A stretch of 51,956 nucleotides of DNA, the filler included, from Jimgerdemannia flammicorona (taxonomy: Eukaryota), in NCBI GenBank assembly GCA_003990765.1. It is 2 parts of 2 records of this genome, joined end to end, with 100 filler letters (N's around TTAATTAATTAA, not from the genome) between each part and the next. Parts side by side here need not be neighbours in the genome. Positions count along the whole stretch, not along the records: positions 26,043 to 51,956 come from RBNJ01000775.1; 1 more part is not named here. One strand, written 5' to 3'. Position 1 is the stretch's first letter, and every line of letters begins with the position of its first letter. The translations under genes and the position numbers were made by a program. Positions 4,448-42,604 of the stretch are shown piece after piece. The notes below the pieces were generated by a model that had not been told where the DNA came from, searched no databases, and saw nothing but the letters and a program-made list of their open reading frames with translations.

Positions 4448-4488
<41 letters not shown>

Positions 4489-13524: not shown

Positions 13525-13555
13525 AAGAGAAATTATATAGTTTCAGACGTATCCT

Positions 13556-20534: not shown

Positions 20535-23500
20535 CATCACACCTTTCACTGATAACATTTAGGTGATACAAGATGCAGATAATACTTTTTGCAACATTTT
20601 TGGTAAAAGGAGACTATCAACATGAACAGCAATGAGCATACTGATGAGCATGTCAGTCAGGGGAGCAATAGGGCATTTGACTGGCAGCAGGTCAGGAGAA
20701 GGTGAGGAGATGGGTTGGGAATGTGGAGCTCCCTATAGTTGGCCATTACATTGGTAGTGGAGGGAGGGGTGGAATGAGACAATAAGGAGGGGGGAGGATG
20801 ACCTTTGCTGACAAGGTCAAGATGGGGAGGATGATATCTGGTCTGGATAGTTGGCTGAGACTGGGGAAGGCATCAATGGCTTCAGCTAGGGGACATGGAG
20901 GGGCCTCCATAGGAGGGTCTGGCAGTAGGGGGGGGGAGTGTAGGGGCTGGGGGTATGATGGCTAATGGAGCTATAACTGGAGATCTGGAAAAAAATCCAG
21001 ATGTGACAGTTGTTGGCAGATCAGGATAGAGGGAGGGCACAAGGCCTGGGGACCTGGCTGATGGTGTGATAGGCATGGTGTCAGCACTATTACTCAAAAA
21101 GTTGAGGTCAGAATATGCCATCACATTGTACTTCTGGGGCTTGGTGGTAAGTGTGAAAATGATTTTAGAGCTGGTAGTATAGGAGATAAAAGGGGTGGCT
21201 TCAGTGAAGTTCTTAAAGGAGAAAGAAGAGGTCAAGGTGGGATTTGAGAGAGAGGCATCATTGTTGGAGGCTGTGGAAAAGAGGGAAGTGGTGGGTGAAG
21301 TAGTGGTTCCTATGGTCAGGTGCATACACTGAGACCCCTGAGTAGTGTAGTTGGCTGAGAAGGAGAATACAGAGAAGGCAAGAGATTGCTAGTAACCCTT
21401 AAGTAGGAATCAGTTGGATACAAGGTTTTGTGAGTAAAGGGGATGCCAGAGGAAGAGGAGGACTTGCTGGAGGCTCTTGAGGATCTGGCAGGAGTAGTGG
21501 AGAGGTAGAGATTGGCCTGGAAGAAGTATGAAGCCAAGATAGTGGTGGAGATTGTGGATAGAAAGAAGATCAATATAGACCAGATGGCCTGGGAGAAGGT
21601 GCAGGAGAGGTAAATTCAGAAGGAGTTGTTGGAGAAGTTGGGAGAAGGTGTGGCAAGCAGTGGTACAGAAGAAGGGAGTACCAGACTGAGGGAGAGTGCT
21701 TGGGCAGGGGAGTGCAGGATGGCCCAGGATGTGGTCCAGGGCAGATTGAGTGAGGAGGGACTGGGCAGTGTGGTAGAGGATGCCGAAATGGGTAAGGAAG
21801 TCCACCCTCAGTATGGCATCCCGAGCAGGACAGGTGGTGAGAAGGAACTACTGGATGTACTGGAGGAGGAGTGGGATGAGTTAGGGAGAAGGAGTGCCTT
21901 AGTGGACCCCATGGTAGAGGTCAAAGGAGTTTCCCAGAGTATTGCTGAGGTGGTGGATGAAGAGAAGTAGCTGTGGAAGACTTTGGAGGAGATGGTGGCT
22001 GAGGAGCTGGGGAGAGAGGACTTCTGGTCCTAAGTGATAGGCATTGGGAGGAAATTCTCTGTGGAGAGGAGGTGCTGTGGAAGATTAGAAATGAGATTCT
22101 GGTGGTGCTCTTGGAGTCAGAGGAATATCAGGTTGATGATCAGAAAGAGGAGGTCCTTTGAAGGACAGTGAATGGCCAGGCAGTATACTTGTGGAATTCA
22201 AGGAAGGGGTTGGAGAAGTGGAGAGTAGTATGCACAGACTATCAGGCAGAAATGAAGGTTGTAGATGGGGTGGAGTATCAGGAAATCTTGGAAGCACTGG
22301 ATGCTCAGGCCATAGTGGAAGATGAGTTGGAGGCAGAGCAGTGCTTGGATCTTGCTGAGGATGGGATGAGCATAGAATACTAGACTGGGCTCTCAATATC
22401 AAATATTATTCAATATGAACAGTATAACTAGAATCTTTTCTTTGAATATGAATGGTTTGAGGGGTATAGCATAGCAAAGAAATATCTTTGGCTGGTTAAA
22501 GGGACTGGATGCAGATCTCTTCTTATTGCAGGATGTGCAGTATGAGGAAGGTATGGATTTACAGGACTGGACTAGAGAATGGGGTGGGGCAGCTGTGTTG
22601 ACTGGGTGGGTGGGTATCTTAGTTTGAAAGGGGATGGGAGATATTGAGGATATTGGACATTGGGGGAGTAGGCTGGTGTGGGGAGTATGGAAGAGGCCTA
22701 GGTAGAACCCCTTAACTGTTAGGTCATGTTATTGCCCAGCTGAGAGGAGGAAACACATCAATTGGATCAGAGGCTTGAGAGAGGCTAGAGTTATGGATGA
22801 GGCAGGGATCAATTGTCTGGGGGGTAATTTTAACATGGTACATAATAGTGGGGTAGACAGGACTGATGGCAGGAGAGGAATGGGGGGCCAAAGTGGTGGT
22901 TGGAAGATTGGATTGAGATTGAGAGATTGAGCTCCTTGGTTAACTTGGGGTGCCAGTTTTGGGCAGAGCACCAAATTTATACTCACTGGATGGCAGGGCT
23001 GGGCTCTAGGATCAACTGAGTGTTGATAGCAGAGTGCTGGGGAGAGAATGTCTGAGATACACTGGAGGTTGTCTGGTGTCCATGGTCAGATCACTGGGGT
23101 CTGATAGGGAGTGGGAGATTTGGGGGGAGTAGAGATGGGTCTGGACATTGGCAATAGAATTCTTCTTTGTTAGATGAGGGTACTTTATGGATAGACTGGG
23201 AGGTCGAAGTTATTGAGAAGATTAGTAGATGGTGGGAGCAGAGACTAGTAATTGGAGATCACTGGCAGTAGCTGAAATCGAGTGCTCAGAGGTACTGGAG
23301 GGAGGCAGGGAAAGAAAGGAGTGCTCAGTAGCAGTAGTGAGTATAATGGGCTTCACAGATATTGGTAGTGCTTCTGGGGAGGTGGGCAGTATTACTGGAG
23401 GATAGGGGAGCAGCTGATTGGAGAATTTTGCAAATATAAAATGAAGTAGATGAGCTTAAGAAAGTGGTATAAATAGCAGAAGAGGTTAAGCTGAAGGGAA

Positions 23501-25942
23501 TAGTGACAAAGTTGAAGTAGTAGGGGTTGGAGGAGGGAGAGAGGCTCACTAGATTTCTGTCCCAGTCACTCTAAGCTTAGCAAACCAGACAGAGGTGAGA
23601 TGGTATTTTGGATGAGGATGGAGAGATGGTGATAGGGATCCCAACAATTTTGGAATTACTGAGAACTTATTGGGGGAACTTATGGAGTGAGAGAGAAGGG
23701 GGTGAGGATGCCCTGAATATTGAATGGCAGTTGGAGGATTGGTACCTGGACCCAGTAATAGGTCTGGGGTTACTGGGAGACCCAGTACAAGGGGAGGAGG
23801 TGTGTAAGGTTTTGGCTTCGACATATAAGGGGACAGCTCTGAGAGAGGATAGGTTACTCTGGGATTTTTGGAAGAAGATAGCTGGGATAGAGGTGGTACT
23901 GGAAGAGATAATGGTGATGTATGATAAGATACTTCAATCTGGAAGTTAGATTGGGGGCCAGTGTCTAGGGCTGGTCTCTTTGCTTTATAAGGATAAGAGA
24001 AGAATAGAAGATTGGAAGAACTGGCAGTTGATCATGCTCCTTGACATAGACCATAAGTTGGTGATAAAGATCTTGGTAACTAGGCTGCAGGAGATTATAC
24101 AGCAGATACTGGGAGTGGAGCAGAGGGGATTTGTAGGTGGTTGGTTAATCTGAGATAGGACTGCCTGGGTCTATGGGGTGATAGAAGGTGCTTGTGTGAC
24201 TGGGGTTGACAGCCACTTAGTGTTTCTGAATCAGGAGAAGGCATACAATAGGGTGAGGAGGACCTGGCTGGATGGACTATTGAAATGTGTGGGAATTCCC
24301 CTGGGGTTCAGGTGGTCATTAATCAGTTTATTGGAGAATAGTCAAGCAATGTTAGTGGTGAATGGGCACAAGAGAGTGACTTTTTCACTTAGTTGTAGAG
24401 TGCCGCAAGGTGATCCTTTGTAACCCATCCTTTATGCCCTCTTCTTGGAGCCCCTATTGGACAGGATCCAGTGTAGAATTGTGGGTTTAGACATTTTGGG
24501 GATTAACTAGAAGGTTGGGGCTTTTGCAGATGATATGGTAGTTAGACTGAGTTCCTTAGAGAATGTTGAGGAATTAAGAAGAACTGTAGAATGATATGAG
24601 AGGGGCTCAGGTGCTCAACTCAACTGATACAAATGTAAGATACTGATGCTAGTAGTAGAATAGTTGGTGGTGACATGATTGGAATAGTGGTTCCAGCAGA
24701 AGAACTGGTCCAGTACTTGGGGATATACTTTTCAGTATATGGGTCTCTTCTGCCCCATACTTGATGGGAACAGTAGCTACTGACATAGGGAAATGTTCTC
24801 TTGAGATGGGGTGGTTGACATATTCATTGGCAGAAAGGGTGATAGTGCTGAATGTGTATTGGCTGCCAAAGCTATGGTATGTGGGGTATCATTTGGACTT
24901 CTCAGTATGGGTGGTTAGATAACTTCTGAAGATGGCAAGATCATAGATTTAGGGTGGAAGGCAAAGTCAGATAGGCTGGGAGGTTCTGACTCTACCTATT
25001 GACAGAGGTGGGCTAGGCTTAGTGGACTTTACCAAATGCCTTCATTGTCTGAAAGTCTGGTGGCTAAAGAGGGTGAGTGAGTTGAGGGGCTGGGAGTGGG
25101 TATCACTCTTGCAGAGGGTATAGAAAGTCTGATATTCCCCTCATAGATCAACTGGTAACCTGCTTGCAATGGTGGCCCTGGATGGGAGCAAGAGGATGTG
25201 CTATAAGGGCTTTTGGTGGAGAGTGGTAGATAGTGCAAGAAGAATTGAACTTCAATAATAGGGTGATGAGGGGGAGGAGGACTGGGGACCACAGATGTAG
25301 AGATAGAACAGATAACACTGGGTGGAGCATTGGTGGAGGATTTTCAGCTTAGTGATGAAATGGAATATGTGTGAGGTCTCAGGGGGGACCTGTGGCCTGA
25401 AGTATAGCAGAGGGTAGGGATTGGTGAGGAGTGAGACTGGAATGGTCTTTGGCCTTAGAGCAAGCAGGTGATGTGGTGGCTTCTCCCTAAGTTCTGAGCA
25501 GTATGGTGGAGGTTTCTATGGCGGAATATGATGCTGAATTATCAATCTGGACACTTGGTGGCAGATGGTGTATTTGAGTGTAAGGAATACATAGACCTTG
25601 GCCAGGAGGAGGGAGTGGTAAAAATGTCTGAACATTGGCTTGAGGAGTGTGAAGTCTTGGAGGAGTTTTGGCACCATATTGTGAACTAGTTAGAACTGCA
25701 GGCCCTGGTGGGAGAGAAAGGGGGGATATGGGGGGACCTCTGCCAAAGGTTAGTGGGCAGGGTTGAGGATGAATGGTTGCCCTTGGGATGGGCTCTGGCA
25801 ATTTAGATTAGGTGAGCTGGATATTAGTTATATGTCTTTGAGGAGGGCCAGCAGAATGAGGTTGAGGCTAAGGTAGTATGGTGGAAATTGTTAATACTTG
25901 ACATTTTGAATGGCTGGTGGAGAGGGTGGGGACTGGGTGGGG
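20535..25942 (+). mobile_element. decayed L1/Tx1-like LINE (LINE-C), 3' end lost in the gap
   Basis: 5' end aligns to LINE-A 2210 onward; ORF1 ~20622-22383 with an internal deletion at ~21350; ORF2 from 22415 with GGNFN, NQEKAYNRV, PQGDPL and FADD. Confidence 0.93.
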
Positions 25943-26042
25943 NNNNNNNNNNNNNNNNNNNNNNNNNNNNNNNNNNNNNNNNNNNNTTAATTAATTAANN
26001 NNNNNNNNNNNNNNNNNNNNNNNNNNNNNNNNNNNNNNNNNN
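25943..26042. other. artificial contig spacer N44-TTAATTAATTAA-N44
   Basis: Exactly 100 nt, symmetric, with a six-frame stop linker in the centre. Confidence 0.95.
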
Positions 26043-26305
26043 CAGACCCTTGACCTCCAGCTCCACCCCCTCTTCCACCGCAGCCCCCCACCAGCAGGCC
26101 CCTCATACTTCCCCCCAAGCCAGGGCCTCTCTCCACTTGCTGCCATTCAAACGCTCCAGGGCCACCCTGCCCAGTACGCACCTCTGGATGCTCGTTGGTC
26201 GCCATGATACTAGTAGCTTTTCTCCAGAAACTGTGTCGAAAGTGTTGCCAAAGGGTTGTGTAACCTGAATGTTACCAGAGAAAGGTGGTGTCTGTGTAGT
26301 CTCTT
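26043..26305 (-). mobile_element. 5' end of a LINE-B-family copy (LINE-D)
   Basis: Highly similar to 15410-15655; ORF1 start MATNEHPEV at 26205. Confidence 0.9.
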
Positions 26306-26309
26306 TCAA

Positions 26310-29300
26310 CCTTATCCATTAGATGCTCACTGAAAACTCTCATGTATCTAGCTGGCAATCTTTACTTAGATGTCTGCCATCTATGGGTCCTATAAAACCT
26401 TCTCAGCCAGTAGAGAGGAGTTAAGGTGCCAATATCCAAGTCCATCTCTACTCCCCCCAAACTGCCCCTGCCCCAACAGGCTCCAGTGATTAGACCATGG
26501 GCACCACTCTACCTCTAAAGTCCTCCAGACATCCACACCCCAGCATTCGGTCATCAGAATTCAATCTATTCTTGTTCCAAGACCATTCACTCAGTATATG
26601 TAGATCCTCTTTTCACCCCACCCTGTATAGCCCATATCTCCTAAGGAGCTAAGGTTCTCAACCTCCTCTCAAGCATCCAGCTCACCACTCCTCTCACCTA
26701 CACACCTCTCTCCATCAGTTCTATTCAACTCCAGATTCCACACTATATTAAAGTCACCTCCCAGCACATTGACACCATCCTCCAAGAGCACACCTTCCTC
26801 CAAAAGCCCCTTAATCCATATGATCCTCTCACCCCTAACTGTAGGGTAATAGTAATAGCAAGAGCCAACTTTCACTGGCTCCCACCCAGGTCAATTTCAT
26901 TCTCTCTATACCAAACAGTCTCTCCAGCTCCTGATTCCCTCTAAGTCACCTTTACCACTACACATCAAAATCACCACCTTGCCCATCCAAGCTATAGTCT
27001 CTCCCTATTCTCTAGTCCATTCTACATGGTCATCATTATCTTCATAATATATATCTTGTAGCAGAAAGAGATCTGCCTCCAATCCTTTAAGCCAAGTGAA
27101 AATGTTCTTATGCTGCCCAGATCCCCTTAACCCATTCATATTTAGCAAGAAATATTAGTTATACTATTCATAGGAAATAATGTTTAGAAGTAAGATCTCA
27201 CTCATTCTCTACAAATTCACATTCTGCCTCTCCTGTGTCAAGTCCAAGTTATGTTCTGCTTCCAGCTCTTCCTCTTTAGCTTTCTTTGCCTCCAATCTCT
27301 CCAGAAGTTCCACCATCTTGCCATTCTCCTTTTCCTCAAATTCCTCACAATACTCCAGACAGGCCTTCTACCAGAGTTGCAAACCATGCCACTCTGCCCA
27401 ACAGTAAGCAGCCTGCTCACTAGCAGTAACTGCTAGCTCAGTCTCCCTCTCCTTATCAACCTCATATCCCTCCTTCTCTAGGAAAATTGTAAGGACCTCC
27501 ACCTTCAGTGTCTTCACCATATCATCTCCTCACAGAATCTATGTCCAGTACTTCTTACTCATCACTCCCAGGTCTACTTCCCCCAATTCTTCAGCTGTGA
27601 AGTTGTTTATCATCTGATACATCCACAATAAGTTACTCACCTCTTTCCTCTCTGGAGTCACCAGCCTTCCTGTATCCAGTATCATGGTATCAGCTCCTAC
27701 ACTTGCAGTCTCATTCCACCTCTCCTCTGGGACATCTACTAGCTCATCCTCACCAACTGCCATTACCTGTCCCCCTTTCACCAAATCAGGAACTCCAAAG
27801 TGGACCTGCTTGATACCATGCATCAGTACATCTTCCACTGCCCTGCCCTTTGTAGCAGGACCCTACCTGATCAGAGGAGAAGTATCTTCCATAACAGGTT
27901 CCCAGACTTCAAACATACTATCCTCAAATAGATCTATATGTGACATCTTTCCAGCATCCTCCAGAACCCTCTCTACTACTTCTCCTCCCTTACTAGTCCA
28001 GACACTCACCTCTGCATCCACAGACTCCTCAATACCACCATCATTCTTCTTCATTCTACCTTTTATACTCACCAACAGCTCTCTCTGCCTCTTATGCCCC
28101 TGAGTCCTTTCCCACTGCCTCTTGTCAGTGCAGATATACTTTCTTTCCACAATCTCCAAATGCATTGACTCCATATATCTCTTTCAGGCCTTTACCCTCT
28201 GCTCGACAGCTCTACTCATCTCCTCCAGAGCCTCCAACAGATCCTCTACCTCCTCCTTCTCACTCCCTTTTACCCTCAATATCTGACAGATAAAAGCCCC
28301 CTATAGCATCACTGATGGCCAGTCACTTGTCTTTTCAGTGGCCTCCTTCTCTGCCAACCAAATCCTGATATCAACATCTCCAGTTCTGATGGTGGTCTCC
28401 TCTCATATCTGAAAACCAATATCAACCACATTGCTATACTCTACCATCACCTCTTTAACTCTCCTCCTCATATCAACCATTGTTACTATAGGCACCCTCT
28501 TCATTAGCAGCTGAACCACTCTGGGGTCCCATCTAAGACAATACACCATAGGGACCACCACTTCCCCAACTACCACTCCAGTCTTCAGAGCCTCTTCCAG
28601 TGGGCCTGCCTCCTCAAAGCCCACCTCAACCCCCTCTAGTCCCTTCAGGAACTTCACTGAAGCAGTCCCAGCCACCTGCTTTGAGATAATCTCCAGGACC
28701 ATTCTTGCCATCACTGCTAAGCCCCAGAAGTACAAGGTTGCCACAAACTCTGAGATTGACTTCTTGAGTAATAGTACCACTACCAGCCCCATCACACTAT
28801 CCACCAGGTCTCTCTTCTGCTTCAGAAACCCCTGCCCTACCTTGCCATCAGCCATCACATCTCTTTTTTTTTCCTGATTCTCTATCATACTCCCATCAGC
28901 AGTCCCACCCTCAGCCACAGCACCTCTAGCCCCTATGCTCACATCCCTCATCTGGATACTGCTCCCCCTACTGATGCTTGTCTTGCTCTTCCCCTCAGCA
29001 GCACCAGCCCTAGCTCCAACTAGCCATCCACTCCCTTCACCTTGTCTACAAAGCTAGGGTGGCCAGGTCTTCTCCTACTTCTACCTAATACTGGTCCTTC
29101 TCCAGATCCCTCTCCACCCTTTAACCCTCCAAAGGCCCCCATCCCTAGGCTATAACCTCTCTCCACATTCTGCCAGCTAAATGCCCCAGGTCCACCTGAC
29201 TCAGCATATCTGTCAGAACTCTTACTTGATGATATTTTTATAGTACCTTTTCTCTGAGTTGTATTAAAAACCCTTGCTTGAAGTTGGTGTAATGTGAATT

Positions 29301-29330: not shown

Positions 29331-32300
29331 TTCTCTTTATAGTCTCCTATTTATAGTATTAAGCCTTTAGTAATCTGAGATAATGTCTGAGTTTTGCCAT
29401 TTACAAATTGTATAGTTCTTTTATTACTAGGTATTAGCCTGTTTTACTAAATTCTGATTGATAAAATTTCTAGAGACTCCTGTATCAAAGAGAATCTTTA
29501 TGTCTTATCCTTTAACTTAAGCTAGTATTTCAATAAGTTCTTTATTATTAATTGTAGAAATAACTTCTTGTGTCAGATTTTATTTCTTTTTCTCAGTCTG
29601 AATATTAGCTAACTTAGTAGCTCTTCTTTGACTAAGTTTACTTAAACATAAGTAATAGTCATTGAGCATTTTTGCACAATATATGTATATGCCATGAGGG
29701 TATATTTCACATAGTATATACTTATATTTTAGTTGGGAGTACTATTTTTCTTCTTTGGTAGATTTTGTTTCTTAAATAGTAACTACTATTTTGAGCTTCT
29801 CTTTAGTATTCTGAAGTAGTCCTGAGGATCTAAATTCTTTAGTTCCTCTTTCTAAGAGTGGGAAGGTTTTGACTTCTTAAACTATAAGATTATTCTTTAT
29901 AACTTCTACAATCAGTTGTGCTACTTTTTGTCCTAGTAGAACAGTATATTGTTCTTTTCCAAGGTTTCTCAGAATGACTTTAATTTTCATCCTGATATCT
30001 TTTATCAATAATTCCTCCTTCTATTGAGAGGTCATAATCTTTTGCTAGTCTACTTTTTTCTGCTATTCTAGCATAGGTACTCTGGGGTATTTATACAGCT
30101 ATACTAGTTTTTATCACTTGAGATTTTTCTAATAGTATTGTTTATAAGACAGTACTATAAAGATCATATCCTGTATCTATTGAATAGACCTTAGTAGGAA
30201 TGATTGCTTTATAGTAAAGCTTTTTAAATTTGATAACTTCTTTTATCTCAGAGATAGTATCAATGACTGAGATAGTTGAAGGTCTTGAAGAAATGTTTTT
30301 CTCTGGACAGATATTAGACATATATATGTCCTTCTTTTTACAATCAAAGCATTTGCTTTCTTTTCTAAATCTGTCTCTTTCTTCTGAAGAAAGTTTTTGA
30401 AAAGTGGGTTTCTTAAATAATAGAGTTTCTCTGTTCCAATTTCTTTTCCTTTTTCAGAGTTTCTTATGTTATTCTGTTCTCTAGATTTGGTAGTAGCAGA
30501 TACTGCTTATCTGAAGTACTATTGATTATGAGAACAGTCTGCAGAGATTTCCATTTCCTTAACTCTTCTGAATAACTATAGAGAGATACTTTAGAAAAAG
30601 TAATTTGCTCTGATTTCATTAAAGGCATTATTATCAGAATCATAAAGGTGTTCTAATATATTTAAGAAGGCTTCCATTTTTACTGTAAAGGCTTTTAGAG
30701 TTTCTTTGCTTTATTTATCTCATTTCATGACTTCCAATTGTGCTCTTGTATCTGCAAGAAGTAAAGGATTTAAAAAATATCTTTTTAGGAGATATTTAAG
30801 TCCTCTTGCTTCAGAGATTTGTAGATATCCTAGTTGGTCTCCTGTGGCATCTTGTTTAGTAACTTCAATTCTATCTTCCTAAGTAAGAGGTTAGGATTTA
30901 AGTTATAATATCAGAGGGTAGCTAAATCTCAAAAATGTATAGCTACTTTGGTAGGTTGAGCTTAGACTTTTGCAAAGACTTCTTCTGCAGTATATAATAC
31001 ATTCTTTGCTAAGATAGAGTCTGGGTTTCTTTGGTCATTCCAACTGTTGCACTTGTATTCATTATCTACTATACTTATAAATTCTGGTAGATCTATAGAT
31101 GTTCCTCCAAAAGTGAGAATTAATAATACTTTAGCTAGTTGATTCATAATAGCTATTTGTCCTACTAGGTCAGTTAATATTGCTAGTTATCTTATTAATA
31201 CATCAGTAGCTATTATTGGGGTTACTGGTTCAGGTGTAAACTCTGGTCTTCTAAAAGTTTTATCTAAGTCTTCAGAGATTTCTTCAAAAAGTCTTTCAAA
31301 GTCTTCTTCTTCTAAGAGATCTATTGCTTTCTTCTTCTCTTTAGATAATGTATCTAATAGACTTTCTGTTTCAGAAAGGTCTTCTACTGATAGTTTAGAT
31401 TCAGAATCTGAATATCTATCTTCTAGTTCAGATTCTGGTCCTAAGTGAGAAACAGATACTGAGTATAAAGAGGTATAAATTTCTGAGACAAGGGCTTTAA
31501 GTAATTCTCTAGCTTCTAGTAAATTTGCACTAGGTTCTAAACTTGTTAATTCTGGAGGTTATCTTCCTACTAGTATCTATTGTTCAGCAGATAAATATTC
31601 TGTTTGGTCTCTCTCTGAACTAAGTACAGAAGAGGTGTCTGGTTCTTGATATATATTAAAATAGATTATATGTCCTTTGTATTGAATTTCCTAAGTTGTT
31701 ATTTCAAGAGTTTCTAGTCTTTATAGTTCTTGTATATAGATGGTCTTATGACTTAGATATCTGAAGTAAAGATGAATCTTTCTTTCAGTAGAGTGATAAT
31801 AAGAAGAATTAATCTACTGAAGAATAGTAGTTTTTGTTTCAATAGAGATTAATTCAAGAAATTATTCTATTGCTTGAGCAACTGATTCAGATATTTCTGC
31901 TTTATATATATATTGTCTTACAAGTCTGTAAAACTTTTTCTAAAGATCTGTATCCCTTCTTAATACTGGATATAGTTTACAGAATTCTGAATATAAATTT
32001 TAAGCAGAATGTTTAATAAGTTCTTGTTGTTATTCTTTATGTTAACTTTCCCAGTCAACAATAGTCTTTATATTCTGTTTTCCTCTTGTTTGAGAGTCTA
32101 GGGTATCTAGTTACTTCTTAAAGGATATGTTCAGTAACAGCTTATAGGCTGTTTAACAATCCTTTATTTGTCTTATGTCAGATTGGCTCATAGATTCTAC
32201 TGCTACTAATTGTAATAATATATCTTTACTATTATAGTAGTTATACCTTTTAAGTTAATAATCCTTGATATCAATGACTTAAAGGCACTTATGTTAGATA

Positions 32301-32344
32301 TCTTTAGCTTGAGGAAGCAACTGTCTTAATGCCTAAATACTATC
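29331..32344 (-). mobile_element. old Ty3/Gypsy internal region (gag, zinc knuckle, protease, start of RT), heavily decayed
   Basis: Minus strand gives KCFDCKK..HI at ~30325-30356 and IDTG at ~30168-30182; truncated by LINE-E. Confidence 0.65.
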
Positions 32345-33746
32345 TGTTATACTTCTAATTGATCTAGTCTCCTTCTGGTAAACTTGAATAATAATTTGGC
32401 AATCATAGACTTTAATTCTTAAAGTCTAAGTCTTTTAGTATATCTTTTTTTGGATATAGTCTGGTTCTGAGAATTATATTTAGATTCTTCAGAGTTCAAG
32501 TATTTATAGAGTTTGGGGACATCTATTTTTAGATATAGTCTTTTTAGTTTAAGTTATTCAGAGACTTATCTATATACTATGAACTTTTAAGTCTTAATTA
32601 TTCTATAAATATTTTTCTGTCCTTTATTGAGTTACTTGCTTAGGGCTATTTATACATTTTTGAGGACTTTACATATTGACTGACTATTGGTAGACAGAAA
32701 GTCACTAAAAATGATATAAAAAGTTATACCATAATAGTATCATTATGAAGTCATAATAATGATATCATTTTCATATGCTAGTTATGAGATAATTGTTCTA
32801 GATTTTGACTGAGAATTATAATGCAGTATTTCATTATATCATATAGTAGTAATAAACTTCTATATAAGGAATTGGGGATTTTTTATCTAATTCTGTTTCA
32901 GATGAGAAAGAGGTTAGCTCTTTTGAGCTAGCTTCTGATCTTGTGACCTCAGATAATATAATAGACCAGTCAGGGACTAGCCTAACATTTGAGAGAACAG
33001 AAAAGCCAGATGACCAGGTGCTGACAGAGATGGAGACTTATGCAATTAGTCCTTGGAAGAGACCAATGATAGAGTTTAATACCTCATTTTTATATAGTTA
33101 AGCATCATCATTATAATGGTCTTAAAGGTTAAAGTTATTTATAAGATCTAACTCTACTTATATTATGTAGGTATCATTGAGGCTATCAATTTTGATAGGA
33201 GCTATCCCTTATATGCCACTAATGGCAAAGGACATTTCTCTGAACAATTGATAGATATAGAGCAAAATATATTATCTAAATATGGAGATATTATATTTGT
33301 TTAGTATCTCTGAAGTGTTTATACCACTTCTGATAATAAGTCTATCTGCCTGGTAGTTTCTCAATATCATGAAATATCTGGTGATCTGTTGCATTCTTGA
33401 TACAACTTCATCAGCAGCTTGTAGATACTGCTTAAGATCATAGATATTTATATCAATATATTCCCAGAAGAACTGGTGTTGATAGTTAAAGACAGCATTC
33501 CAGAGTGCTTAGTAGATACATTCAGAGAGTATAGGCATGATTTGTTTATATCTTAGTTTTGTTTTTTTTGGGGAGATGTTTATGTATTTATGTAGTAATT
33601 ATTTGAATGATCATTTTCCAGAGTCAATTTACAGAGTATTTATTTGTTTACTAAACAAACTATTTTAGTATATAGTAACTATGATTTCATAGCTTATTAT
33701 AGTTTAGTTTAGCCCATAAAGTCACTGGTCTTAAATATCTTACTAT
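32345..33746 (-). repeat. 5' LTR of the old Gypsy, proximal part (continues at 42605-42917)
   Basis: Minus-strand end TATAACA at 32345, followed by GA and a decayed PBS-like TAGTATTTAGG; matching start TGTTACA at 42917; split by the younger element's CTAT TSD. Confidence 0.55.
32834..33538 (-). pseudogene. LTR-encoded accessory ORF homologue (~234 aa)
   Basis: One frame from ATG 33538 with 7 internal TAA stops and no frameshift; colinear similarity to the ORF at 41501-42358. Confidence 0.7.
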
Positions 33747-33953
33747 TGTCATATAGTGGTTGCTGAGTCCTTCAAATATACCAGATTCTCTTCAAGGTGT
33801 ATCTCTTAGACTAACTCAAGTTTGTTATAAGTAAGTTCTTATTGGAGTGCCTTTCTAAGGTCTTATAGTCCTCAAACTTCTTATCTTTAACTGTCTTATT
33901 ATCTCTTAGATTGCTTGCAAGGAAGTGTATGTATTGCACTGAGAGGAACTGAC

Positions 33954-33986
33954 TTTATTTCAGAGGAAATAAGAGGAGTATTTATA
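33954..33986 (-). promoter_or_regulatory. LTR TATA box (TATAAATA, 33979-33986) and poly(A) signal (AATAAA, 33954-33959)
   Basis: Both motifs are conserved in the 5' LTR (TATA at 41254-41261), which places R near the LTR 3' end. Confidence 0.6.
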
Positions 33987-34225
33987 CAAAATATAATTCA
34001 ATGGTTGCTAAGATATAAAGCTAAATATAAATTCCAATAACTAAAACTACTAAGTTCCAGAGTCGGCACTGATAGTTGTATAGGTTCAGGATGCTGATAT
34101 TATTTAGAATTACATCAAAATGCTAGTGCTGGAACAATTTCATATCACCTCAGAATATTGGTGCTAGCATTATCCAGTGTTACATGAGAATACCAGTGCT
34201 GGCATTATCTAGTGTAATAAAGAAC

Positions 34226-35082
34226 TTAGAGCAGAAAGTTCAGGATCATAGGGGCTTCATCATCATCATCATCATCACTGAAGGAGATGAGATCCATGAA
34301 TTCATCATATACATCATGCATTTTGCATACTTCGCATACTTTGGATATGTCGTACATCTCATATATGTCGAAGTTACATGGGATGACATCATCACCGATG
34401 ATGTCATCACATTCAGCAGTGGGGAAATCAGGAACAAGATCTGGAGCTCTCCAGTCTATAAGATTCTCTTCCACAAAATAGAGGACAAATATGGGGTCTT
34501 GGGGAGATCTAATCTGGATACTTGGGCCTTGGAATACTGAGATCAATCCTTGCAGGAATTGGTCTGGGTTGTCCTGAAGGATAGGATGCCAGAAGTCTTC
34601 TACTTCTTCGCTATAAGAGTGATAGTGGACTAGGCTTCTGTAGCCACTCTAGCTTCTAGTGCATTGATATAGTGGGATGACAGGTCTCTGAAGTCTGAGA
34701 CTCTAACATACTCCAAGTTGGGGATCGACCATGGTGCATATCTGAAGATCTGATGGATCTTCTTAGCTATCCTTATTTTGTATATATCCATGGGAGTGGC
34801 ATCTTGTAGCTCTTGGATACTGGCCTATGGGAACTCCTGGCAGAGGAGGTTTTCTATTTCATACTCCTGCCACATTTGGAGGCATTTGGTAGCAATGGTG
34901 ATTCTTATTTCCATTTTACAGTAGTAGAGAATGAAGTGATAAGGATCTATAGTACTCAGATTGACACAAGGAGTCCTTCTTGAGCAGGTCCCCATGGCTC
35001 TTCTGATGTCTTGGAACATCCTCTCCTCAACTGAGATACCTTGGTGATTCCTTGACCTTGAGGTTTGGTGAGCAGTAGGCAT
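34226..35082 (-). pseudogene. U3-encoded ORF, 3' LTR copy
   Basis: MPTAHQTSRS...APMILNFLL; two TAG stops and a 1-nt deletion near 34613. Confidence 0.8.
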
Positions 35083-35324
35083 TTTATTTGTGGTAAGTCT
35101 TTGAGCTATTTTGGGATTAGTGGTTCTTATTGGTTGCTACTACTGCAGTTTCTTGATTCTTCTTTTATATTCTTCAGGATGCTTGTACTGTGGTCACAAT
35201 GACTCACAGTTGGTCATCATTGCTCATCTCATATGCTGTATGATTTTCTTATACTCCGATCTGGTGGCTTGCAAGGAAAGACTGTCTCCTGTACTGATGT
35301 CATCATTCTGGGGTCACAATTACA

Positions 35325-35334
35325 TCTTCCTCCT
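35325..35334 (-). promoter_or_regulatory. polypurine tract
   Basis: AGGAGGAAGA immediately precedes TGTAA of the 3' LTR. Confidence 0.85.
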
Positions 35335-35637
35335 GAATAAGGATCTTCTTGAGTATCCTTATTCATTGGTCCAGTCCTGAAAAATTTGCTGATCCTATAA
35401 CCTCTGGCAAGGGGTCAAAAAGTAGTGTTTATGGGCTGGCATCTTCTCTTTGTATTTTGGTATGATGGTGAAGGGTTGCTCCCTTCATATAGAGCAAGGG
35501 CCTGATTCTGATCTTGACCAATCAGTTGATGGTTCAAACTCCTCTAACTTCGAAAGTCTCATGGATGAGTAGTTGCCAGTGCCATATCCCTTAGAGAATG
35601 GTCCAGACAGATAGCCTGCTGGTCATGGGACATGCTG

Positions 35638-36880
35638 TTACGATTTATGGACTAGAACCTCACAGGTGGTCATTATGTTTTGCTTCTCTTGTATAGGTTT
35701 GTGGTACTTCTTAAGTCTATTCCTATATACCATGGTAGGCAGTATGGTCTCTGAGATTTTTCTAAGCCAGAAGATAGTTCCCTTGATATCTTGCATGTAG
35801 AAGAGTCCTTTCTATTTGGACTCCAGTTTTCATGACCATGAGGCTTCTATCATATTTCAATACAGTAGAACCTTTTCTCCAATTCAGATGGGTTCTAGGG
35901 CCTTGTGATTCTTTTCTGCATTCTTCTTTGTCAGCACTTGTGACTTGGTGATATAATCTTCAGCCTTCTTCCTGATTTGGTGTAGTCTCCAGATTTCTGC
36001 ATCAACCCATCTCCAAGTTAGGTCTAGATTTGTAGCTGAGGTTCCATCAGAATCTTCTTCTCTGAAGAGCAGCTCTCTTGGGGTAAAATGTGTGCTCTGT
36101 GACTATATATCTCATAGGACAGAGAGGGTGGTTGGGAGATAGTTATCCCAATTCTCATATGTCTCTGAGATCTTCACTAGGATATTCTTGAGGGTCTTGT
36201 TGATTCTCTCTGTCTGTCCATTTTCTTGAGAGTGGTATGTGGTGGTCTTGATGTACTGGATCTTGTATTTCTGATACATTATCTCATAGAATCCATTGAC
36301 AAATTCTGTTCCATGGTCTGTTGTGATTTGCTTTGGTGTCTTGTAGCAGCAGATGATTTCTCAGTGTAGGAAGTCAGCTATAGAGAGGGCATTGGCTTCT
36401 TGTAATGCTCCTGCCTCTATCTATTTAGTGAAGAGGTCTACAATAACTATAATATAGCAGTTTCCTAATAGTGTTACTGGTAGTGGTCCAATGATATCTA
36501 TTGCAATGTGGTGGAAGGGGATAGGCTCAATTCTTGATGACCTAGGTGCCTGGTCTTGCTGATCTTGTTTCTGTTTTTGGTACTTGTCACACCCTTTGAC
36601 AAATTGGCATAGGTCTTCTTCTATCTTGGGCCACTACATAGTTCTTCTTGCCTTGTCATATGTGTTGGTTCCTCCTAAGTATCCTTGCTCATGTACTTCC
36701 TTCATTACTTGATACTTCTTATGTTCAGGTATTACTAGCTTTCCTTCTTTTCTGAATATAGTGTTGTCTAATTCAAACTGTTTCCAAGTCCAGTTGATGA
36801 TAGTGATTGTCCAGGGTTCAAGGTGGTTGGGCATCTTCCACTACCCAAGATAGCTGATTAATCCATAGTATAACTCCTTA
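35638..36880 (-). pseudogene. integrase (HHCC, DDE, GPY/F)
   Basis: VHEQGYLG..CDKY, HIAIDIIGPLP, TTDHGTEFVN, YHSQENGQTERINKTL, NRLKKYH; TAA at 35638-35640. Confidence 0.92.
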
Positions 36881-36910
36881 TTCATATTAAATAGTCTTGA
36901 TGGGAGTATT

Positions 36911-38300
36911 TCAGGGTGTCCTTGAGAGTGCATCAGCATTGGTATTGGTCTTTCCTAAGCAGTGCTTGACAGTACAGTCATACTCTTGCAGTCTGTAGAT
37001 CCATTTGACATATATTCCTTTGGGGTTCAGAGTGTGAAATAGCCAGGCAAGAGTGGAATGGTCTGTTTGAATAGTGAAGTGTTTCCCAGCTAGGTAGTAG
37101 TGGAACTTGTCTACTGCCCAGACTACTGCTAAATATTCAAGCTTGTATGACTCATAGTTCTGTTCTGCTCTGTGAGTATCTTGGCTTATATAGGAGATAA
37201 CATATTTATGTCTATCTTTCTTCTGAGCTAGGACTGCTCCAAGTCCTATAGTACTCACATCTGTCTGCAGGATGAATTCTAGGTTCCAGTCTGGTCTTCT
37301 GAGGATGAGTACTTGGGTCAACCTGGTCTTGAGTTCATTGAAGGTTTCTTAGTGCTCTTTGGTCCATTCAAATTTGGTCTCCTTCTTCAGTAGCTTATAG
37401 ATAGGTGCTGCAATATTGAAGTATCCTTTGATGAATTTTCTGTAGTAGCTGGCCAGTCCAAGGAAGGCGTGGACTTCTGTAGTTGTTCTGGGTCTTGGGT
37501 AGGCTGCAATAGTCTTGATCTTTATGGGGTTTGTGTGGATTCCAGTCTGGTTGATGAGATGTCCTAGGTAGGAAATTTCTTGAGCTGCAAACTTACATTT
37601 CTTGGGCTTGATATAGAGGCCATGCTCCTTGAGTCTCTTGAGGGCTAGCTGTATGTGATTGATATGTTCCCATGCAGTGTTGCTGAAGATGATCACATCA
37701 TCAATATAGACAAAGAGCCATTTTCCAATCTTATTACTGAAGACTCTGTTCATCATTTGCTGGAAACTTGCTGGAGTATTGTACATTCCAAATGGCATTC
37801 ACAGATAGATATAGGTGGTGTCAGGTGTGATAAAGGCTGATTTCTCACTGGCATCTTGAGTGAGATTGATCTGATAGAAGCCTGAGAACAGATCCAAGGT
37901 GGTGTAGTATTTGGCTTCACTTCTAAGAGTGGTAAGGATTTCTTGAATATTTGGCAAGGGCTGCCTATCCTTCTTGGTGATGGCATTGAGTTTTCTGTAG
38001 TCAATGCAGAGTCTTGGTACAAACTCTCCAGGCTTGCTTCCTTTCTTCAGGGCTAGGACAATAGGTGAGGCCCAGGGGCTAATAGCTTGCTTGATGATTC
38101 CAGCTTCTTCTATTTCCTTAAGTTCTGCTTGCAGCCACTCTCTGTAGGCAGGTGGTATGAGTCTGGCTTTCTGGTAGATAGGCTTGGTATCACCAGTGTC
38201 AACTTCATAGTAGTACTTGGGTTCTTGATTGTAGATATCCCTAAAGTCTGTAGCAAGTACTCCTTCATTCTGGTGCAGGATCTTGAGAAGTTGTTCCTCT
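36911..38300 (-). pseudogene. reverse transcriptase and RNase H
   Basis: SPWASPIV, RLCIDYRKLN, LDLFSGFYQI, MPFG, YIDD; TDVS..GLGAVL, TDHSTL, NADALSR. Confidence 0.97.
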
Positions 38301-38394
38301 AGGGGAAAGTTTTCTCTAATGATATATGTGTACTTGTTCTGGTCCTTGTCTTTCTTATGCTCAAGTTCGGTAATCTTGGTGGCAGCATAGGCTC

Positions 38395-38820
38395 CTCTTC
38401 CAGTAGATCCAAAGCTTTGTTCTCCTCTCTTGGTCTTGATGAGTTTGATGGCTTCAATGATCTTGGGCTTCTTGACTTCGTGGATCAGCATCTAGCCAAT
38501 CCTGTCATGCTTCTTGACTTCGAAGGGGGTGGTATGGTTGTGATTTCTGACTATAAGGAAGATCTCACCAGTGTAATCAGGGTCAATTACTCCTCCTTCA
38601 ACTGAGATTTTGCTTTTGGTCAGACTGCTCCTGGTCTTGATAATTCCGGCATGGTTTTCTAGTAACTTGACTCCAATTCCAGTACCAAGTAGGGTAGTGG
38701 TCTGTGGTTCAAGGGTAGTATCTTGAATGCTGGTAAGGTCTATTTCTATGGCTCCTTCAGTCTTGTATTCTGGGATCTTGGCTTCAGGGTAAAACTTCTT
38801 GACCTTGAGGGTGATGTCTG
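38395..38820 (-). pseudogene. dut: trimeric dUTPase domain within pol
   Basis: GAIEIDL (motif I-like), TRSSL (II), GVIDPDYTGEI (III), DRIG(Q>*)M (IV), RGEQSFGSTG (V). Confidence 0.93.
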
Positions 38821-39149
38821 ATTCTTGTTCCTCCTCATTATCACTGTCAGCTTGAAGCTCTGGGGGCTGGTCATCTTCTTCAGCTTTCTTTTTTGCTTCA
38901 GTGACTTCTTGCTCATATTTCTGTTGGCAGATTTTCCTAACTTCACTGATATAGGACCAGTAGTCATTCAGGTGTTCAGAGTAGTATATCCTAGTACTAT
39001 GGGGGCATCTTCCTTGAGAGGCATAGCCATCGATAATCTTGTTGTACCACTGCTCATTTGTGAGCTTGGGTGTCTTGTTCTTGTTCTTATTCACTGAGTA
39101 CATAAAGACCTCTGTGTTCTCTTCATCTCCTTCCTCTATGTCTGGTAGG

Positions 39150-39530
39150 ACTCCTTTGTGGACATTGATAGAGACTCATACCTTTCTTCCTCTATAGTTG
39201 ATCTGCATCTTCTGGGCATTGAGGTCAATAATGGCCTTGGCCTTGTGAAGCCATTGGTTGCCAATGAGGATATTATAGTTGGTGGTGCTTGTAACAATTA
39301 CGTCTACTGGGATGGTAGCTCTTCCTATCTTGATGGGGACTTCTCAGATTTTGCCAAGGGGGGTAGCTCATATACTATCTGCTATGACATAGACCATCTT
39401 GGTAGACTCTTCAATATCTCAACCTAGGTGGTCAATTGTCTTCTTGCTCATGAGGCATCCTCCAGCACCAATATCAATGATGGCATCAAAGATACAATCT
39501 TCAATCTGATATGGAGTATAGGCTGATGTC
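39150..39530 (-). pseudogene. aspartic protease
   Basis: DAIIDIGAGGCLMS (decayed DTG) and downstream IILIGNQWL. Confidence 0.85.
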
Positions 39531-39697
39531 TTGTGCTGGTCTTCAGATTCTTCACCTAAGTTCTCAGATTCTTTCTGTGCATTGTGAGCATCTACAATCT
39601 TGTACTCTTGGTTCTTGGCAGTAGTTGCAAGTTCTACTCTCAACTGCTGTCTGAAGGCAGAAACTTCAGCTAGCTGTCTAAAAGTGGCATTGACCTT

Positions 39698-40965
39698 CTA
39701 TTCCTTGAGGTCCTTGTAGATGTCATACTGGTGGATCTTGGTCTTGCACAGCTTCTGTTCCTTCTTGCTTTCACTTTCTCCTGAGACTGGAGTAGTGCCT
39801 TCTATGATTTGGTGGACAGCTTCATCTAACTCCATATCTTGATCAATCTCCTCAGGTTGGGTCTTGCTTTGAATAGTGACAGCTGGGGTCTTCTTTGGTC
39901 TTCCAACTGGCTTGTTGTTGCTCTTCTTATCATAGGGCTTGGACCAGGTTCTGGTACCTTCAGTAGCAGGGTAGAATTCGAGCTTCTTATAGTATTCTTT
40001 ATCATCAGTATCACCAATCTCCTCGATGACTACTATATTGGTTTGTTCTCTGGTTCTGCTAGCATTGCTTGGTTGGGCTTTGTGTCTTGTTTCAGTCATA
40101 CAACTCTTTGCATAGTGGCCTTCTTCTCTACATCTGAAGTATGTGATATTGCATTCTTCTATAGCAGCTGCAAATCTCTGCACTGGTCTCCTGTTGGCAC
40201 TTCAGACTTCTCTAACAACATCACTAAGGTATACAGTTATCTTGGTGAACTGCTTGGCAAGTTCCTCCACTGGGTCAGCTTTGGCTGTCTTGGGGGTAGG
40301 TGGGGTTGGTTGTCTGTTTACAACTGTGGTAGATATGATACTAGTTGGCTTTGATGGCTCTATCTTGATGCCAGTTATTTTCTCCATTGAGTGTTCGGCA
40401 GGGTGTCTGGTAGTCCAATATCTCTGTACAAAGACCACTTTCTGATCAAGAGTCAGTGCAGCTGGGGTAGACTGGATTGCTAGGGCAATTTCAAGATGAA
40501 CTCCTTTAAGGAAGGTTGAATCTGCTATTTGTTCCTTGAGGTGGTCATCATAGCCAGCCAAGACAATCTGGGCAGATTCAGGTATAGAATGAGTTGGGAT
40601 CTTCACTAAGTCCCTGGCAGATAGTATTGAGTTGATTCTTGAGAGCTTGCTTGATCTCTTTAGTATAATATATTGTTCTGAGGAAGGTTTTCATGTTGGT
40701 AAGTTTGGCTGCACCAGTATTAGCAATGGTGGCTGCATTGAACTTATCTCTGGTAGGTCCTCTGAGGCTGACTGGTAGAAGGGCCAATTGTGCATCCATA
40801 CCAAGGGCTCGTATAGCAGCAAATTGTTCAAAGTCTTCAATGAAGATCAGGATTAACTCTTCAATAGTATATCCATAGAATGTGGGGGGATATATTTCTA
40901 TCTTGTCTTGAATTCTTGCAGGGGTGACTCTTGTAGTCAGGGTAGTTGTTGTGGGGATTGTTCAT
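39698..40965 (-). pseudogene. gag with zinc knuckle
   Basis: PPTFYG..FIEDFE, ICQGLSEDPNSFYT, YFRCREEGHYAKSC (decayed CCHC). Start approximate. Confidence 0.85.
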
Positions 40966-41000
40966 TTTTCAGCTTGAAAGTGAGGAATTTGTCTTGAATC

Positions 41001-41018
41001 ACCAGCCAATGGACACCA
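41001..41018 (-). promoter_or_regulatory. primer-binding site (PBS; tRNA unassigned)
   Basis: TGGTGTCCATTGGCTGGT begins 3 nt after the 5' LTR end TGACA. Confidence 0.65.
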
Positions 41019-41021
41019 AGT

Positions 41022-42600
41022 TGTCACATAGTGGTCACTGAGTCCTTCAAATATGCCAGATTCTCTTCAAGGTATATCTCTTAGACTAACTCAAGTTTGT
41101 TATAAGTAAGTTCTTATTGGAGTGCCTTTCTAAGGTCTTATAGTCCTCAAACTTCTTATCTTTAACTGTCTTGTTATCTCTTAGATTGCTTACAAGGAAG
41201 TGTGTATATTGTACTGAGAGGAACTGACTTTATTTCAGAGAAAATAAGAGGAGTATTTATACAAAATATAATTCAATGATTGCTAAGATATAAAGCTAAA
41301 TATAAATTCTAATAACTAAAACTACTAAGTTCCAGGGTTGGCACTGATGGTTATACAGGTTCAGGATACTGGTATTATTTAGTATCACATCAAAATATCA
41401 GTGCTAGAACAATTTCATGTCACCTCAGAATACCAGTACTAGCATTATCCAGTGTTACATGAGAATACCAGTGCTGGCATTATCTAGTATAACAAAGAAC
41501 TTAGAGCAGAAAGTTCAGGATCATAGGGGCTTCATCATCATCATCATTATCACTAAAGGAGATAAGATCCATGAATTCATCATGCAGGTCACACATTTCA
41601 CATACTTCGCATACTTCAGGTATATTGCATGTCTTGTATATGTCGAAGTCATGTGGGATGATGTCATTGCTGATGACATCATTATATTTGGCGGCAGGAA
41701 AATCAGGAACAAGATCTGGAGCTCTCCAGTCTATGAGGTTCTCTTTCACAAAATAGAGGACAAATGTGAGATCTTAGAGAGATCTAACCCGGATGCTTGG
41801 GCCTTGGAATACTGAGATCAATCCTTGCAGGAATTGGTCTAGATTATCCTAAAAGATAGGATGCTAGAAGTCTTCTACTTCTTTGCTATTGAGAGTGATA
41901 GTGGACTGAGCTTCTGTAGCCACTCTGGCTTCTAGTGCATTGATATGGTGGGATGATAGGTCTCTGAAGTCTGAGACTCTAACATACTCCAAGTTGGGGA
42001 TCAACCATAGTGCATACCTGAAGATCTGATGGATCTTCTTCGCTATTCTCATTTTGTGTATATCTATAGGAGTGGTATCTTATAGCTCTTGGGTGCTGGC
42101 TTATGGAAACTTCTGGTAGAGGAGGTTTTCTATTTCATACTCCTGCCATATTTGGAGGTATTCAGTAGCAATGGTAATCCTTGTTTCTATTTTGTGGCAA
42201 TAGAGAATGAAGTGATAAGGGTCTGCAGTACTCAGATTGATACTAGGAGTCCTTCTTGAGCAGGTCCCCATGGCTCTTCTGATGTCTTGGAACATTCTTT
42301 CTTTGACTGAGATACCTTGGTGATTCCTTGACCTTGAGGTTTGGTGGGCAGCAGACATTTCATTTGTGGTAAGTCTTTGAGCTATTTTGGGATTGGTGGT
42401 TCTTATTGGTTGCTGCTATTGCAGTTCCTTGATTCTTCTTTTATATTCTTCAGAATGCTTGTACTGTGGTCACAATAACTCACAGTTAGTCATCATTGCT
42501 CATCTTATATACCATATGATCTTCTTGTGCTCCAATCTGGTGGCTTACAAGGAAAGGCTGTCTCCTGTGCTGATATCATCATTCTGGAGTCACTGTTACA
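41022..42600 (-). repeat. 5' LTR (1579 bp)
   Basis: Direct repeat of 33747-35324; contains degenerate ~33-bp tandem units at 41340-41490. Confidence 0.95.
41501..42358 (-). pseudogene. U3-encoded ORF, 5' LTR copy (285 codons plus stop)
   Basis: ORF-track pieces 42101-42358, 41864-42052 and 41501-41749 share one frame; 858 nt in total with three point stops. Confidence 0.8.
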
Positions 42601-42604
42601 CTAT

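Follow-up and report, generated by a model that had tools for sequence, protein, structure and literature searches.

The window, a 51,956-nt stretch of Jimgerdemannia flammicorona DNA (GenBank assembly GCA_003990765.1; two parts joined end to end), was found to carry on its minus strand, at 32834–33538, a stop-interrupted reading frame (copy B) that is probably a dead member of a real gene family borne in the unique 3′ (U3) region of retrotransposon long terminal repeats (LTRs). The similarity of copy B to a frame located in both LTRs of a nested Gypsy-type retrotransposon (copy A in the 5′ LTR, with a sister copy in the 3′ LTR) is weak but real. This nested, inner element is inserted into the LTR-like terminus of a second, far more decayed dUTPase/protease retroelement, here termed the outer element. 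The gene family is present in the LTRs of one dUTPase-bearing Gypsy-type element at least, and probably also in those of a second, very different one. The gene copies and the element that holds two of them are located as follows.

32834–33538, minus strand: copy B, the decayed gene copy located in the putative outer LTR; 234 codons followed by a terminal TAA and interrupted by seven internal TAA (identified by frame reading and family homology)
33747–42600, minus strand: nested inner LTR retrotransposon, with gag (CCHC), protease, dUTPase, reverse transcriptase, RNase H, and integrase in that order
41022–42600, minus strand: 5′ LTR of the inner element; about 1579 bp, ends TGTAAC...GTGACA, with TGTATAAATA at 41263–41254 and AATAAA at 41234–41229
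33747–35324, minus strand: 3′ LTR of the inner element; 1578 bp, 89.6% identical to the 5′ LTR
41501–42358, minus strand: copy A, located in the 5′ LTR of the inner element; 285 codons long up to the TAA stop of the family, with five internal TAA/TAG (hidden Markov model [HMM] E-value 2e-94)
34226–35082, minus strand: the gene copy in the inner 3′ LTR; two internal stops, plus the loss of one base at codon 157

Copy B and its protein family

When read from its ATG at 33538 on the minus strand, the copy B frame began MPILSECIY*ALWNAV and was interrupted by TAA at codons 10, 89, 110, 127, 139, 147, and 167 before reaching a terminal TAA at codon 235 (32836–32834), after which TGA is the next codon. 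The C-terminal tail of this translation, EVTRSEASSKELTSFSSETELDKK, aligned with the acidic tail of the relatives described below (...DLISF.D...DEDEAP), and both an M-P start and an L-x-[ST]-F motif were present; the LNFL end typical of the family was not recognizable in copy B in the family alignment. None of the three gene copies in the window has an uninterrupted frame; all three are pseudogenes, with copy B the most decayed. The openness of copy B when TAA and TAG are read as glutamine was not taken as evidence of a gene, because 102 frames of at least 150 aa are found across the window under genetic code table 6 (compared with 20 under table 11).

The first-pass annotation of this DNA had flagged copy B, with its coordinates, M-P start, and seven in-frame TAA, as a divergent homologue of the inner-LTR frame, and had aligned the two block by block in the absence of obvious DNA-level similarity. 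Each of these observations was reproduced. The alignment was recovered by BLASTP (26.2 bits, E-value 5e-4, 29 of 147 positions identical), and its Smith-Waterman score of 82 was reached by none of 1000 residue shuffles (mean 35.6, standard deviation 5.9, maximum 69), while comparison of the outer LTR with the inner LTRs by blastn (word size 7) gave nothing at an E-value ≤ 0.01. With stops read as X, the pair was the sole outlier among the 36 pairs of LTR frames compared (z 6.7; next highest 3.6). Further support came from an independent HMM built from six metagenome relatives, with all window sequence excluded. When used to search six-frame translations of the window, this profile identified the two inner copies (E-values 1e-94 to 1e-38) and then the copy B region, with nothing else found at an E-value < 0.01. 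The match to copy B extended over 33454–33152 with stops read as X (E-value 1.3e-4) and over 33457–33026 with TAA and TAG read as Q (E-value 3.7e-6); the corresponding scores were 16.5 and 23.3 bits, against best-of-six-frames maxima of 5.6 and 7.9 bits, respectively, in 500 dinucleotide shuffles of the outer LTR part. By hhalign, copy B was aligned with the family over 167 columns at a probability of 91.4% (E-value 8.8e-7). A protein search with copy B as the sole query returned 160 candidates, none of which had an E-value ≤ 0.01.

Relatives of the inner frame were identified by (i) an exhaustive search, which gave seven matches including five true relatives; and (ii) a profile search, which gave nine matches and added six further relatives. 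The two remaining matches of the exhaustive search, P0006 and P0007, were repeat proteins and were judged spurious as family members. A scan of metagenome DNA yielded 329 pattern matches, of which one was confirmed as a family locus (L001, 1535 nt). The resulting family set consisted of copy A of the window, P0001–P0005, P0008–P0015, and the frame on L001. In all, at least 12 metagenome relatives were found that were 27–81% identical to the inner copy and fell into at least four subfamilies; they derived exclusively from JGI and ENA metagenome sets, were located on contigs of 600–4848 nt, and were annotated as hypothetical proteins or left nameless. No relative from NCBI or UniRef was detected by the exhaustive or the profile search.

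Full-length, uninterrupted members of the family included P0010 (271 aa), the L001 frame (291 codons, open under the standard code), P0013 (325 aa), and P0003 (342 aa), with the proteins of the family overall spanning about 235–340 residues. The M-P start was common to all full-length members and copy B, and the blocks EYEI, AKKIHQ.FRH, and LQDN.DQ.LQGL..F.GP were conserved along the family alignment, as was the acidic tail. Members with a protein identity of 20–39% still kept the start, the blocks, and the tail. The ...LNFLL C-terminus of P0010, P0001, and P0011 was found to fall exactly at the TAA of copy A. The partner frame, which the first-pass annotation had extended to 312 codons, was accordingly shortened, as it ends at codon 285 with a TAA that matches the C-termini of the relatives. 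No fused or longer forms of the family were detected among proteins of 600–2000 aa, and no Pfam family was matched by any of 13 members at an E-value ≤ 0.01 (best 0.088).

The pattern of nucleotide conservation was that of coding sequence. With codons threaded through the protein alignment, the identity at codon positions 1, 2, and 3 was 0.49, 0.61, and 0.40 for the inner copy compared with L001; 0.34, 0.51, and 0.26 for copy B compared with L001; and 0.38, 0.50, and 0.31 for copy B compared with the inner copy. This period-3 conservation is not an artefact of the protein alignment, since threading the inner/L001 pair through frames +1 and +2 as a control left the best- and worst-conserved physical bases unchanged. 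Taken together, the four distant, co-linear full-length frames and the codon pattern appear to indicate purifying selection on the protein. The inference originally drawn from the window alone, that these frames belong to an LTR-borne gene family under selection and did not arise by chance, is supported by the intact relatives, the period-3 pattern, and the frame-specific signal.

The encoded proteins were also compared for charge, motifs, and predicted structure. The net charge was 0 to +7 over the first 50 residues and −15 to −25 beyond residue 200, and the motifs DLI[STIN]F and LNF[LT] were present in three of the four full-length members. Two AlphaFold models, both of low confidence (mean predicted local distance difference test scores of 49.4 and 42.1), displayed the same helix order, a helical core, two short strands, and an unstructured tail. 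A profile search of PDB gave a best E-value of 0.24 (ribosomal protein S13), the feature matches in the ESM Atlas were all ≤ 0.83 with template modeling (TM) scores ≤ 0.33, and a VIA-align fold search of 48,161 chains gave a best Z of 5.4, which was obtained with a low-confidence model and is within the noise for helical models.

Position of the gene within the two elements

The inner element has the organization of an LTR retrotransposon, with direct repeats bounding gag-pol, a 4-bp target site duplication (CTAT on the plus strand, at 33743–33746 and 42601–42604), and a polypurine tract, AGGAGGAAGA, immediately upstream of the 3′ LTR. Its two LTRs are identical at 1418 of 1583 aligned bases, and its internal domains were matched by Pfam as dUTPase (E-value 5e-24), RT_RNaseH_2 (4e-33), RVT_1 (8e-19), and Integrase_H2C2 (3e-12). 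The same element family was abundant in the assembled contigs of four public runs (X1, X2, X4, and X5, of which three are labeled soil metagenome and X5 is a coded organism); 6824 pieces were found in X1 alone, most of the pieces were 90–99% alike, and the joints encountered in mapping the contigs fit the ambiguity of LTR-to-LTR mapping. It would seem that the inner element is present in many copies in a common soil organism, either the carrier itself or a near relative.

The outer element was identified on the same strand, with its putative LTR split by the nested insertion.

32345–33742, minus strand: putative outer LTR, 3′ part; holds copy B, with TGTATAAATA at 32656–32647, AATAAA at 32628–32623, and the end ...TATAACA at 32345
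42605–42917, minus strand: putative outer LTR, 5′ part; starts with TGTTACAAG at 42917 and is separated from the 3′ part by the nested insertion
29331–32344, minus strand: internal part of the outer element; gag-like region 32320–30929, dUTPase 30204–29819, and aspartic protease 29519–29414, breaking off at about 29331

The outer segment ends in TGTTA...TAACA, a 5-bp inverted repeat with TG...CA termini, and the gag-like frame begins 25 nt past the end of the segment. In the internal part, dUTPase was matched by Pfam with E-values of 2e-10 and 2e-7, together with a protease motif (E-value 1e-3) that is weaker than the Pfam cut-off; the region has many in-frame stops, a GC content of 0.30, and a CpG observed/expected ratio (o/e) of 0.00. 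It is plausible that the outer segment is the LTR of the 29331–32344 element, a reading supported by the TGTTA...TAACA ends, the putative TATA/poly(A) module shared with the inner LTR (see below), the common strand, and the direct abutment on gag-dUTPase-protease. The status of the segment as an LTR is nonetheless unproven, because it occurs as a single copy in the window and the element is cut off at about 29331. The internal parts of the two elements were far diverged, with a best tblastx E-value of 0.002 (28.6% over 63 aa). The dUTPase was located on opposite sides of the protease, in the order protease-dUTPase in the inner element (38398–39469) and dUTPase-protease in the outer element (29414–30204), both on the minus strand. 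This opposite placement suggests either two independent placements or a rearrangement.

The gene occupies a comparable position in the two LTRs, spanning ~243 to ~1100 of 1579 in the inner LTR and ~521 to ~1228 of ~1714 in the outer segment. At 175–235 nt downstream of the gene, a module of the form TGTATAAATA-N18/19-AATAAAG (N18 in the outer segment) was found to be common to both, with TGTATAAATA and AATAAA at positions ~1340 and 1370 of 1580 in the inner LTR and ~1403 and 1431 of 1714 in the outer segment, respectively. After AATAAAG, ~210 nt remain to the end of the inner LTR and ~280 nt to the end of the outer one. We infer that this module represents a TATA box followed by a poly(A) signal at the border of U3 and the repeat (R) region; the gene, being upstream of the module in both LTRs, would then lie wholly in U3.

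A conserved block was also identified immediately ahead of the gene.

42363–42378, minus strand: 16-nt leader, AAAGACTTACCACAAA, just 5′ of the ATG of copy A; recurs at 35087–35102 and is identical at 353–368 of L001

The leader is identical in the inner LTR and L001 even though the DNA around it does not align and the proteins are ~37–39% identical, and a degraded look-alike was seen by eye ahead of copy B. Three roles are conceivable for this block, namely as leader sequence, as start-context element, and as antisense splice donor. Matches to the leader in viral contigs (79 loci) were considered to be due to chance, since none of the 79 encodes the family. The reverse complement of the leader was noted to contain GGTAAGT, the consensus 5′ splice site.

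Decay of the copies, alternative explanations, and the remaining window

The sequence differences between the two inner LTRs were dominated by transitions (159 of 165). At C/T sites the following base was A in 47 of 92 cases and T in 2 of 92, and G/A sites were preceded by T in 28 of 67 cases. Only one of the six internal stop positions was common to both inner LTR copies, and the pol frames of 295 and 434 codons held one TAA/TAG each. At positions with A or T in the window, the public contigs mostly have G or C (for X1, A>G 286 and T>C 194 compared with G>A 154 and C>T 126). CpG o/e was 0–0.15 in every repeat of the window as opposed to 0.71 at 1–2000, and the TpA/ApT ratio was 1.02–1.22 in the outer element and 0.77–0.82 in the inner element. 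The hallmarks of repeat-induced point mutation (RIP), namely transition excess, a preference for CpA>TpA, and high TpA/ApT, were present when judged by the usual RIP index thresholds, and this mutation pattern is suggestive of a fungal host. Overall, the window copies are broken by C>T/G>A transitions, through RIP-like or methyl-cytosine decay, and the near-total loss of CpG across the repeats could result from ordinary methyl-cytosine decay.

In-frame TAA and TAG codons were therefore attributed to decay and not to the genetic code, because transitions dominate, the stops differ between the sister LTRs of one insertion, and the stop of the family is itself TAA. A ciliate-type code, under which the organism would read TAA and TAG as glutamine and the frames would be intact genes, was tested and rejected as exceedingly improbable. 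Although several of the window stops align with Q in the relatives and table 6 opens all three gene copies, the TAA used as the stop of the family in the window is found exactly where P0010, P0001, and P0011 end, one of the other stops aligns with a conserved W, the long pol frames are interrupted only once each, and L001 is open under the standard code. Also tested and unsupported was the proposal that copy B represents leftover DNA homology of regulatory LTR sequence in a chance open frame, or plain chance, which we regard as highly improbable. The openness of nearly all of this AT-rich DNA with TAA/TAG read as Q (the 102 frames noted above) and a pairwise identity of only 20% would be in keeping with chance. 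However, significance was restricted to 1 of the 36 frame pairs, the LTRs have no match at the DNA level, a profile built without window sequence recovers the frame at a score that none of the 500 dinucleotide shuffles came near, and intact relatives exist whose conservation has a period of 3.

Two further explanations accept the homology and differ in what they make of it. The frame may be a passenger, that is, a host or foreign coding fragment once captured in U3, in which conservation reflects recent common descent with no selection; we find this quite unlikely. Consistent with a passenger, no function, fold, or expression has been established for the family, and its closest relatives (60–81% identity) may belong to further copies of this element family in a similar organism. 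Counter to this explanation, (i) at least four subfamilies have uninterrupted frames of 271–342 codons in which the M-P start, the blocks, and the acidic tail are kept at 20–39% identity; (ii) the two carrier elements are far diverged in both sequence and dUTPase placement; (iii) the codon positions are conserved in the pattern of coding sequence; and (iv) the relatives come from metagenome sets only, with no host source gene in sight since none was found in NCBI or UniRef. The other explanation concerns the outer element, for which the family would be real yet the frame would lie outside its LTR, either in a 5′ leader with an upstream ORF0 (open reading frame 0, of the Retrosat2/RIRE3/RIRE8 or Ogre type) or in the solo LTR of a third element that abuts gag-dUTPase-protease. 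Extra ORFs upstream of gag-pol are documented in plant Gypsy elements (PMC3485330), and the single copy of the segment, with no target site duplication or primer-binding site recognized, is compatible with this arrangement. We nevertheless consider it unlikely, as the TGTTA/TAACA inverted repeat resembles the proven ends of the inner LTR, the order of features is that of the proven LTR (leader, gene, ~200 nt, TGTATAAATA-N18-AATAAAG, and ~280 nt), and the segment is on the strand of the internal genes and directly abuts them.

Several points weigh against the assignment of copy B to a family of U3-borne genes. The LTR location is proven for one carrier family and inferred for the second, as no second copy of the outer segment (by tblastn, blastn, or HMM), target site duplication, or recognizable primer-binding site was detected in the window. 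L001, which is the sole relative available as DNA, was without recognizable LTR ends or a TATA module. The U3 assignment depends on two short AT-rich motifs within AT-rich DNA. In addition, both inner LTR copies have a stop at codon 86, and the copy that was inserted may therefore have carried a defect from the outset. Because gene callers report open frames only, part of the apparent intactness of the relatives is a selection effect, and several of the relatives are fragments of 87–215 aa. The structure models are of low confidence, with no fold, Pfam, or PDB match to back any function.

Outside of the LTR elements, the remainder of the window consisted of LINE-like (long interspersed nuclear element) copies and AT-rich debris. 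Stretches of ~50% GC with a GC skew of ±0.4–0.5 were observed at 2707–7900 (plus), 10000–15350 (minus), ~20400–26000 (plus), and ~26000–29300 (minus); all four are G-rich on the coding strand with a CpG o/e of 0.15. RVT_1 was detected in two of them, at 5467–6633 (E-value 3e-18) and 10791–11549 (E-value 1.5e-11), and the skewed stretches resemble LINE-type elements whose sense strand is unusually rich in G. Two N runs of 44 each (25943–25986 and 25999–26042), which belong to the stretch between the joined parts, are situated between oppositely oriented G-rich/C-rich blocks. At 51200–51956 (plus), the gag-like frame of another retroelement starts (FAGYPEEDPREFLDGIKGIAALRNL) after five repeats of CAACCAGAT and a Ser/Glu-rich stretch, and the likely LTR upstream of it, at ~49.5–51.2 kb, was found to have no member of the LTR-gene family. 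A candidate third locus of the family within this region, at 51388–51741 (plus; HMM E-value 0.02–0.13), was rejected as a low-complexity Q/N-rich translation, with another frame there being the gag start. A tandem repeat at 19161–19368 has a unit of 15/30/45 nt (CCTGTCTACATGCAA) and a Cys/Gln-rich translation; its keratin-B2 matches in Pfam were sub-threshold and probably spurious. Only the 1–2000 end looks like non-repeat DNA, since the CpG o/e of 0.71 was confined to this first 2 kb and values of 0.00–0.25 were obtained elsewhere where measured. No Pfam family was detected in the frames of 1–2000 and 50.6–51.7 kb.

Proposed function, related systems, and significance

If copy B is a dead member of a U3-borne gene family, as we favor, the full-length RNA would carry the gene within its final kilobase, 3′ of pol and the polypurine tract, and both DNA ends would receive a copy of it during reverse transcription. 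The gene would be an accessory gene of the element, expressed either through a subgenomic or spliced RNA or under its own promoter, which would lie within the first 240–520 nt of the LTR; the 16-nt leader before the ATG would belong to its expression unit. The protein is predicted to be mildly basic at its N-terminus, to form a helical core of ~190 residues, and to end in a disordered tail that is strongly acidic and contains DLI[ST]F and LNFL motifs. Such a layout might belong to a regulator that binds DNA or RNA and has an acidic effector tail. From its composition, it is tentatively suggested that the protein transactivates the expression of its own element or regulates it post-transcriptionally; countering host silencing or guiding integration comes next.

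Complex retroviruses carry accessory genes in U3, including sag in the LTR of mouse mammary tumor virus, lentiviral nef, and spumaviral tas/bet. Similar to these genes, the family of the window is on the sense strand and would lie wholly or partly in U3, hence in both LTRs, and behind pol in the genomic RNA; as for sag, one case is proven in which the LTR contains the entire gene. The size of the proteins (~250–340 aa) is in the range of Sag or Tas, and an acidic-tailed, regulator-like protein would be reminiscent of Tas. Unlike the retroviral U3 genes, the carrier is a Gypsy-type retrotransposon with dUTPase and no env seen in the window, and the family has no sequence, Pfam, or fold match to the Sag, Nef, and Tas/Bet proteins, a result that is compatible with a distant relation. 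LTR retrotransposons are known to carry extra genes, either 5′ of gag, 3′ of pol, or in antisense orientation. Cassandra elements, which are plant terminal-repeat retrotransposons in miniature (TRIM) and non-autonomous, have a 5S RNA gene with a pol III promoter in each LTR. As for Cassandra, the LTR itself would carry an independently expressed gene, such that solo LTRs would be gene cassettes; in contrast to the RNA gene of Cassandra, the window family is a protein gene in autonomous elements.

Extra genes described in other LTR retrotransposons resemble the window family in some respects. According to PMC3485330, Retrosat2, RIRE3, RIRE8, and FRetro3 have an extra ORF0 between the 5′ LTR and gag-pol, with a similarity of ~10% for ORF0 compared with >60% for ORF1. 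The plant ORF0 and the window gene are alike in being lineage-restricted, in accompanying unusually long LTRs, in evolving faster than pol, and in occurring in several related families. They differ in that the window gene is inside the LTR; the Pfam and protein searches gave no plant or named match, and no direct comparison with ORF0 was made. In Botrytis cinerea, Boty-like Gypsy elements possess an additional gene, brtn (Zhao et al. 2011, cited in PMC8365987). By that description, brtn shares with the window gene its status as an extra gene of a fungal Gypsy element that standard genome annotation misses; compared by description only, brtn is antisense (by the cited title) whereas the window gene is sense-strand and inside the LTR. 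For crapaud of Podospora, the accessible part of the report describes LTRs of 339–443 bp with a variable U3 half of <200 bp, in which that part reports no ORF. A search of the available full-text literature returned no report of an LTR-borne protein gene in Gypsy-type retrotransposons.

The placement of metagenome 'hypothetical proteins' in the LTRs of retroelements is a useful annotation in itself. It is possible, though we advance it with reserve, that a Gypsy-type lineage of soil eukaryotes (probably fungi) has a U3 accessory gene; that each LTR, solo LTRs included, would be a promoter-gene-poly(A) cassette; and that the acidic-tailed regulator would activate the element or blunt silencing, making it a retrotransposon counterpart of sag/nef/tas that arose outside of the retroviruses. 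If confirmed, the 'complex' type of genome organization would have arisen independently in retrotransposons, and an unnamed protein family would be at hand to test for roles in element expression or in evasion of genome defence. Annotators would furthermore be alerted that long LTRs and solo LTRs may hold coding sequence that is hidden by repeat masking.

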